Below are positions 32,347 through 33,991 of a stretch of 64,000 nucleotides of DNA, piece after piece (positions within the stretch are counted from its first letter, which is position 1; each line of letters opens with the position of its first letter). A program made the position numbers and the translations under genes. The notes under the pieces are model-generated. The model saw nothing but the letters and a program-made list of their open reading frames with translations. It searched no databases and had not been told where the DNA came from. The DNA comes from Podarcis cretensis (taxonomy: Eukaryota). The stretch lies in assembly GCA_951804945.1 (NCBI GenBank), contig OX638149.1, forward strand, positions 111,848,001 to 111,912,000. The letters are read 5' to 3'.

Positions 32347-32725
32347 GTAAGTATTTTTTTGCAGTATTTAAAGGGGGGGGGGGGTTGTTAGTCACTGGTA
32401 ACCTCAAGTTGAGACAGGGAGAACCTTTAGAGAAAGAGATATACAGTATTGTTGATTTTTAGCATCCCAGAATGGAGACTGTGCTGCAGAACCATATTAG
32501 AATTTCTGCCGTTTGTATTGTAACTAACTCTGGCTTAGCCCTCTTAAAATAAGCTTGTTTCATATCTTGTCTTCTTTTCTGTTCACTGGAATGGAAGCTA
32601 CCTCTCAAGTTCCCAAATTAGTTTAAAATAAAGCAGTGTGATTTGTTCGTTGACATTTTAATTTAATCTGAGAAAAGGCCCCCCCAAGCAAGTAACATAA
32701 AGTCTGCCTCAATTCTGAATAACTG

Positions 32726-32854
32726 NNNNNNNNNNNNNNNNNNNNNNNNNNNNNNNNNNNNNNNNNNNNNNNNNNNNNNNNNNNNNNNNNNNNNNNNNNN
32801 NNNNNNNNNNNNNNNNNNNNNNNNNNNNNNNNNNNNNNNNNNNNNNNNNNNNNN
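32726..32854. other. 129-nt N gap at the expected position of mutually exclusive exon 5N
   Basis: Run of N ending 78 nt upstream of exon 5A. The gap is seen directly; its content is inferred. Confidence 0.75.
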
Positions 32855-32932
32855 GAAGTGTCAGGCCCCTTGTATCTCCAACTGTTTTTTGTGTGCTGTC
32901 ATTGTGTTTGTGTGTGAACTCCCCTATTGCAG

Positions 32933-33024
32933 ATATGTGACAGAGTTTGTGGACCTGGGCAATGTCTCAGCGTTGAGAACATTCAGAGTTCTCCGGGCAT
33001 TGAAAACAATATCAGTCATTCCAG
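32933..33024 (+). CDS. SCN2A: Coding exon 5A (adult form; [34 protein letters not shown]3-S4)
   Basis: ttgcag|ATATGTG; 92 nt; donor CAG|gtgaga; Asp (VDLG) marks the adult variant. Confidence 0.96.
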
Positions 33025-33991
33025 GTGAGAGCTAGGTTAAACACGGAGGCTGACCTTTCAAAGCTCCATTAAAGATGAAACCACACTTTTAAGCATAAGC
33101 CGTGTTGCTTGCTGCACTGTATAAGCAAAAAGAAAAAGAAAAAAAAGCAAGAATCAAAAACTTTTGTTTTCAGCGATTCTTTGCTTTTTAACTATGGCAG
33201 CTTGATTATTATTATTTTTTTCCAAATCAGCCTTTGCGTTTAACAAATTCTTGCATGAGACATTTGCAGTAAGTGGCTATATGATTTGCATCTTATGACA
33301 TCAAGCTTTCCGCTTTTAAATTAAGAGTCAAGATTAAGGCTTTCATACTGATGCAAATTTTACCATTTGTTGCAGGCACTCCCAACCGAAACTTGCTATC
33401 AGTTGTGTTTGGGTTTTTATTTATTTATTTTTAAAAATTATGCATAAATAGATGCAAAATGTGAAAGTTAGCATGGGCTTTTTTCTATGCATGGGAATTT
33501 TCTAAAAAGATGTCCTTCTCCAAACCATCACCGATTTTTATTCCATAAAACTGAACATGGGATAATTGAAATAACTAATTAAATAAAAACACCTTATTTG
33601 TGTTGTTCAACAGTTCAAAAACCGACTCCACAATAATGGTTTGGGCAAGAGACACAAGAAAAATAAAACAATATACTTTTCTACACAGGGCTGAGATACA
33701 GCATGGATCGCAAAATTGCGTTTTTGCTTAGGCAAAGTGTTTCTCTGATTATGTACCACTGATACCTCAATATATCTGTTTTATTTTCATACACAGTTTC
33801 AAATCAGCATAAACCTAACAGCTTTTCATTCATGTTCACAGGCAATCAGGCTTTTTTCATTAAACTGTCACAAATATAAAAACCATTTTGTTGTCATTCT
33901 GCATGAAACATTAACTAAGTCAAGCACATTCACGTGACATACAGTATATTGAGCGTGCGACATCGCAATGAATTTCCCTTTCTGTTTGCAG

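Follow-up and report, generated by a model that had tools for sequence, protein, structure and literature searches.

In mammalian SCN2A and related sodium-channel genes, two versions of exon 5, 5N and 5A, are each 92 nt long and differ at position 7, where Asp stands against Asn or Ser, and a transition from 5N to 5A takes place during brain development (PMC8383430). Mutually exclusive 5N and 5A exons are a feature of vertebrate SCN2A and also occur in SCN1A, SCN3A, SCN5A, SCN8A and SCN9A (PMC8383430, PMC5811987), with the N exon preceding the A exon in all cases, and the N form raises channel availability after brief depolarisations (PMC5811987). Across 23 mammals, the SCN2A N exon has accumulated three silent changes and no amino-acid change, while the SCN1A N exon carries frameshifts or stops in seven of the 23 (PMC5811987). 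An excess of third-position conservation in the exon 5 copies has been linked with the control of their splicing (PMC12633343). In HEK293 cells, an SCN8A minigene yields double-inclusion products (PMC12633343), so that exclusivity is not purely steric in that system. In human SCN1A, rs3812718 is named both IVS5-91 (PMC13011093) and IVS5N+5 (PMC8383430); by our own arithmetic, the two names imply a 95-nt intron.

Among squamates, the garter snake (Thamnophis sirtalis) carries two exon-5 copies 95–147 bp apart in all studied paralogues except SCN4A, a range that the text and supplement 2 passages of that paper give across paralogues and not for SCN2A alone (PMC4209135). The same paper was the sole match for literature on exon 5 of Anolis SCN2A or SCN3A. 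A literature search, with most subscription journals outside its coverage, found no data on developmental splicing of exon 5 in lizard sodium channels.

The window analysed here is a stretch of 64,000 bases of lizard DNA. Comparison of the window with the Podarcis muralis protein A0A670JES9 (P0020) by tblastn gave 1131 identical residues out of 1157 aligned and located the following gene:

18120..54362, + strand: SCN2A coding exons 1–16, as 16 matched blocks from tblastn of P0020; the gene runs on past the window

Over these 16 exon blocks, P0020 and a second P. muralis model, A0A670JEZ6 (P0022), show 97.8% and 97.9% identity, and most of the differences are alignment edges that extend into introns. 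Outside exon 5, the window departs from the two models by two interior substitutions (one of them covered by P0020 only) and by two more in intron read-through. These departures suggest that the DNA, which belongs to Podarcis or a near lacertid relative, comes from a congener or represents a different allele from the reference used for the models. Like the other reptile proteins used here, the Podarcis proteins are gene-model predictions. Coding exons 2 and 3 are separated by an intron of the AT-AC (U12) type, with its donor at 26818 and its acceptor at 30477–30478, as in snake paralogues (PMC4209135), and the P. muralis models extend some 10 residues into it, probably through an annotation error. 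Exon 11 ends near 45072 in P0020 and at or beyond 45132 in P0022, with a GT donor at 45124, which suggests alternative donors within 45072–45132 of the window. A 1.37-kb dispersed repeat has two intronic copies (28469–29840 and 48568–49939), and there are several SINE-sized copies of 350–370 nt (for example 5631–5975, 23166–23543 and 61518–61882). Beyond those of SCN2A, no further channel exons were found in the 64-kb window. Of 24 sequencing runs compared by sampled words, 14 contained at least 0.78 of these words, and three probable RNA sets contained 0.21–0.29.

Sequence comparison identifies this gene as the squamate SCN2A (Nav1.2) orthologue. Across the window, three proteins of squamate SCN2A reach ~95% identity, and three of the SCN3A type reach ~85%. 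In a quick tree of 30 rows (midpoint root, no mammalian SCN2A row, labels as given by the sources), the Podarcis match fell among the nine rows of a squamate SCN2A clade (SH-aLRT 100); the squamate SCN3A clade, of 11 rows (100), was separate. These identities and this placement count against the gene being SCN3A, with an SCN3A 5N in the run of N letters described below, which we consider very improbable. That reading draws on exon 6 and exon 11, which scored slightly higher against human Nav1.3 than against human Nav1.2 (159 versus 150 bits and 215 versus 205 bits, respectively), but exon 1 is closest to human Nav1.2 (160 versus 146 bits). Because exon 1 favours one paralogue and exons 6 and 11 the other, comparisons with human structures do not settle the question. 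Nor can residue 7 of exon 5 separate SCN2A from SCN3A in reptiles, since snake SCN3A-labelled N exons (P0023–P0026, P0048/49, P0056–P0059 and P0078/79) carry Asn, where human SCN3A 5N has Ser (PMC8383430). Rows labelled ‘type 2’ or ‘type 2-like’ (Columba, Gekko P0030, Varanus and Erythrolamprus) grouped with SCN3A, contrary to their labels. Candoia SCN3A exon 6 was unusually near to SCN2A (91%), possibly as a result of gene conversion.

The region of exon 5 is made up as follows:

32218..32346, + strand: constitutive coding exon 4 of SCN2A (129 nt), which precedes the alternative pair, with AG before 32218 and GT at 32347
32726..32854, no strand: N run, 129 nt, the sole N run in the 64,000-base window
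32855..32932, + strand: visible part of the short intron that precedes exon 5A, 78 nt, with AG at its end
32933..33024, + strand: exon 5A, 92 nt, AG/GT-bounded, Asp at residue 7, encoding the DI S3-S4 linker and S4
33992..34266, + strand: SCN2A coding exon 6, with AG at 33990–33991; the 3' end is approximate, taken from the protein match

Exon 4 is identical to P0020 at 42 of 43 residues, and exon 6 shows 100% identity to both P. muralis models over 90 residues. The 30 residues of exon 5A that correspond to human Nav1.2 (PDB 6j8e) are all identical. As expected for the downstream member of a 5N/5A pair, exon 5A spans 92 nt between AG and GT and encodes Asp at residue 7. The N run lies in the intron region between the end of exon 4 (32346) and the start of exon 6 (33992), and 78 visible nucleotides separate its end from the start of exon 5A at 32933. 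The N run has the same length as exon 4, 129 nt, which we regard as a coincidence, as exon 4 is single-copy and intact.

We searched the window for a second copy of exon 5. In blastn, exon 5A gave only chance matches of 10–23 nt. The Asn-type peptide of P0020, which scores 144 against itself, reached 21 and 23 in the intron stretches 32348–32725 and 33060–33992, where the means of shuffled sequences were 23.3 and 25.9, and 165 and 172 of 200 shuffles, respectively, scored as high. On the blastn and shuffle scores, we reject the idea that these visible intron stretches hold a degenerate second copy. An earlier note on this DNA, made from its letters, had described the adult exon 5A as the only visible copy, with a 129-nt gap 78 nt upstream; our coordinates agree, and the 12-mer that it quoted from the left flank is present in the window sequence.

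Against the visible exon 5, both P. muralis models show a single difference, at residue 7, where they have Asn and the window encodes Asp. From this it follows that, in the orthologous gene, an exon coding for Asn lies between exons 4 and 6. In our window, the Asn form is encoded nowhere in the visible sequence, though it is the form used by the matching models. The N run therefore very probably covers an ordinary exon 5N of lizard SCN2A, with the following predicted features:

32720..32723, + strand: branch-point-like TNAY, a weak candidate, with its A at 32722, 23 nt upstream of the 5N acceptor predicted for a 95-nt spacing
32746..32837, + strand: putative exon 5N of 92 nt, encoding Asn at residue 7, placed by the geometry of a 95-nt intron and by the Asn exon in the P. 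muralis models

The geometry can be stated more closely. An AG, a 92-nt exon and a GT can all lie inside the N run at inter-exon spacings of 80–113 nt, which corresponds to exon 5N starts from 32728 to 32761. These spacings meet the published 95–147 range at 95–113 nt, which is a compatibility and not a measurement, and spacings above 113 nt, part of the garter-snake range, do not fit the N run. At a spacing of 95 nt, the fit is exact (20 + 92 + 17 = 129). If a 129-nt gap were placed at random, the probability of its covering AG, 92 nt and GT would be 5e-4 for a single fixed spacing and 1.3e-3 for any spacing of 95–147 nt; both values are post hoc and indicative only. The last AG ahead of the N run is at 32701–32702. 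A distance of 23 nt to the predicted acceptor fits the usual position of a branch point, and the last 60 nt before the gap contain two TNAY motifs, about the frequency expected by chance.

Predicted proteins of other reptiles and of birds show the same pairing of forms. A protein search with exon 6 returned 937 matches, 120 of which were compared (proteins up to 2000 aa). Among these 120, residue 7 of exon 5 is Asn in 45 and Asp in 75. When equal-length pairs with four or fewer differences were taken from the listed matches, 17 of 20 differed at residue 7, and 14 differed solely there. Squamate species with an SCN2A-type row among the listed matches numbered 11; nine were placed by the tree, Laticauda and Ophiophagus were included by label and 96% identity, and Sphaerodactylus, which was unplaced, was excluded. 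At least five of the 11 (Notechis, Candoia, Pituophis, Eublepharis and Gekko) have both the Asn and the Asp form. The Asn form is present in at least eight, and among the matches listed three species have Asn alone and three have Asp alone. Since the matches listed are the best 120 of 937, a species with a single form is no sign of exon loss. The SCN2A N exons of Notechis and Gekko (P0003/4, P0006/7 and P0039/40) carry Ile for Val at residue 2, set against a mammalian SCN2A N exon that is invariant in the 23 species of PMC5811987. The exact 5N peptide whose absence from the filled gap was, in the earlier note, to count against a hidden 5N is for that reason too strict, as the Notechis and Gekko exons have Ile, not Val, at that residue.

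Much of the earlier proposal holds up. Its main idea, that the 129-nt gap hides exon 5N, is backed by the Asn exon of P. muralis, by the Asn/Asp pairs of squamates and by the 95-nt geometry, which make it highly probable, and its division of the gap into about 20, 92 and about 17 nt becomes exact at the 95-nt spacing. It had also given the tandem exons as 92 nt long and about 90 nt apart; the length is correct, and the garter-snake spacing of 95–147 bp is slightly larger. The word ‘hidden’ does not suit an exon whose tandem arrangement is already published for a squamate SCN2A and present in public annotations.

The locus can now be set beside the closest described systems. It is like vertebrate SCN2A 5N/5A in gene and position (DI S3-S4 and S4), in exon length (92 nt), in the Asp at residue 7 of the downstream copy and in having room upstream at a known spacing; it is unlike them in that the upstream copy is predicted here and that developmental timing comes from human and mouse only. 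Like garter-snake exons 5a and 5b, which also belong to a squamate, it would have tandem copies within the reported distances and an invariant downstream copy (PMC4209135), but the species is another one. The P. muralis models are nearer still, being ~98% identical over the 16 blocks with exon 6 identical throughout, and they depart from the window in the Asn at exon-5 residue 7, the two other interior substitutions and the 10 residues of AT-AC read-through.

Loss of the upstream exon would leave the same visible sequence. In the lineage of this lizard, exon 5N could have decayed or been deleted, as happened in rodent SCN1A, with exon 5A constitutive and the gap covering a remnant or plain intron. 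N-exon loss is real for SCN1A, as the seven of 23 mammals mentioned above attest (PMC5811987), the gap itself contains N letters only, and the Asp form stands alone in three of the 11 squamate species among the matches listed. However, in the matching P. muralis models the Asn exon is intact and in use, and the SCN2A N exon shows zero amino-acid changes in 23 mammals (PMC5811987). Under loss, moreover, a gap at exactly the place of exon 5N would be a coincidence of ~1e-3, and we regard loss as extremely improbable. It would be the first case known to us for SCN2A. If true, this lacertid would be without the early Nav1.2 isoform and its fast recovery; in none of the 23 mammals has the SCN2A exon been lost (PMC5811987).

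The N run is a data artefact and not new biology. We think it probable that it is a sequence-dependent mask over DNA nearly identical across amniotes, applied either on deposit or when the data were prepared afterwards. A mask is favoured because the window has no other N run, its length of 129 is a non-round size, the 300-nt flank to its left is unique within the window, and the six long microsatellites and 17 dispersed repeat blocks of the window are all without N. A true assembly gap is a possible but rather doubtful origin. We also judge unlikely the fuller account in which exon 5N is present, the gap has an estimated size, the spacing may be another one and the 20 + 92 + 17 fit is accidental. 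Non-round sizes are normal for gap estimates from paired reads, which counts for this account, but the unique left flank and the gap-free repeats speak against it, as does the exactness of the fit to a 95-nt spacing. Assembler collapse of both exon 5 copies is unlikely, the copies being too divergent: 22 of 92 bases differ, as counted by eye, between the visible exon and the published mammalian SCN2A N exon (PMC5811987).

Filters that act on 95% identity to human over 100 bp are described, for other loci, as catching true conservation (PMC5017631), and the N exon, near-invariant across mammals, is of the sort that such comparisons with human would flag. FCS-GX is an unlikely source of the mask, given that its automatic internal FIX action is restricted to inter-kingdom chimeras; it also discounts highly conserved intervals (PMC10898089). 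That FCS-GX would not usually mask such a conserved stretch (PMC10898089) counts towards an assembly gap. If the N run is a mask, short N runs of non-round size next to conserved exons of vertebrates should be treated as artefacts of the data, and in no case as evidence that an exon has been lost.

With exon 5N in the gap, exon 4 would be joined either to 5N (Asn, upstream) or to the visible 5A (Asp), and the chosen exon to exon 6. By arithmetic and from the frame of exons 4, 5 and 6, inclusion of both copies or of neither breaks the reading frame, as 92 is not a multiple of 3, and exactly one copy would keep it. Frameshifted products are subject to nonsense-mediated decay, by which double-inclusion and double-skipping transcripts would presumably be removed. 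Exon choice is probably set by splicing elements within both exons and the short intron, which would account for strong nucleotide conservation there, as has been shown in mammals. The Asn form may recover faster from inactivation and dominate early in development, as it does in human and mouse. By extrapolation from mammals, the same 5N/5A regulation, including the developmental switch, may operate in lizards.

The 5N/5A pair is an already known vertebrate feature; it has been published for a squamate SCN2A, and its Asn exon is found in public Podarcis models. The earlier note had warned that an annotation built on this sequence would miss the developmental switch; the switch itself is known for human and mouse only, and the part of the warning that stands concerns the isoform. 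For this lizard, the biological import is small, as the feature is a known vertebrate one, and an annotation made from the window sequence alone would miss the Asn isoform.
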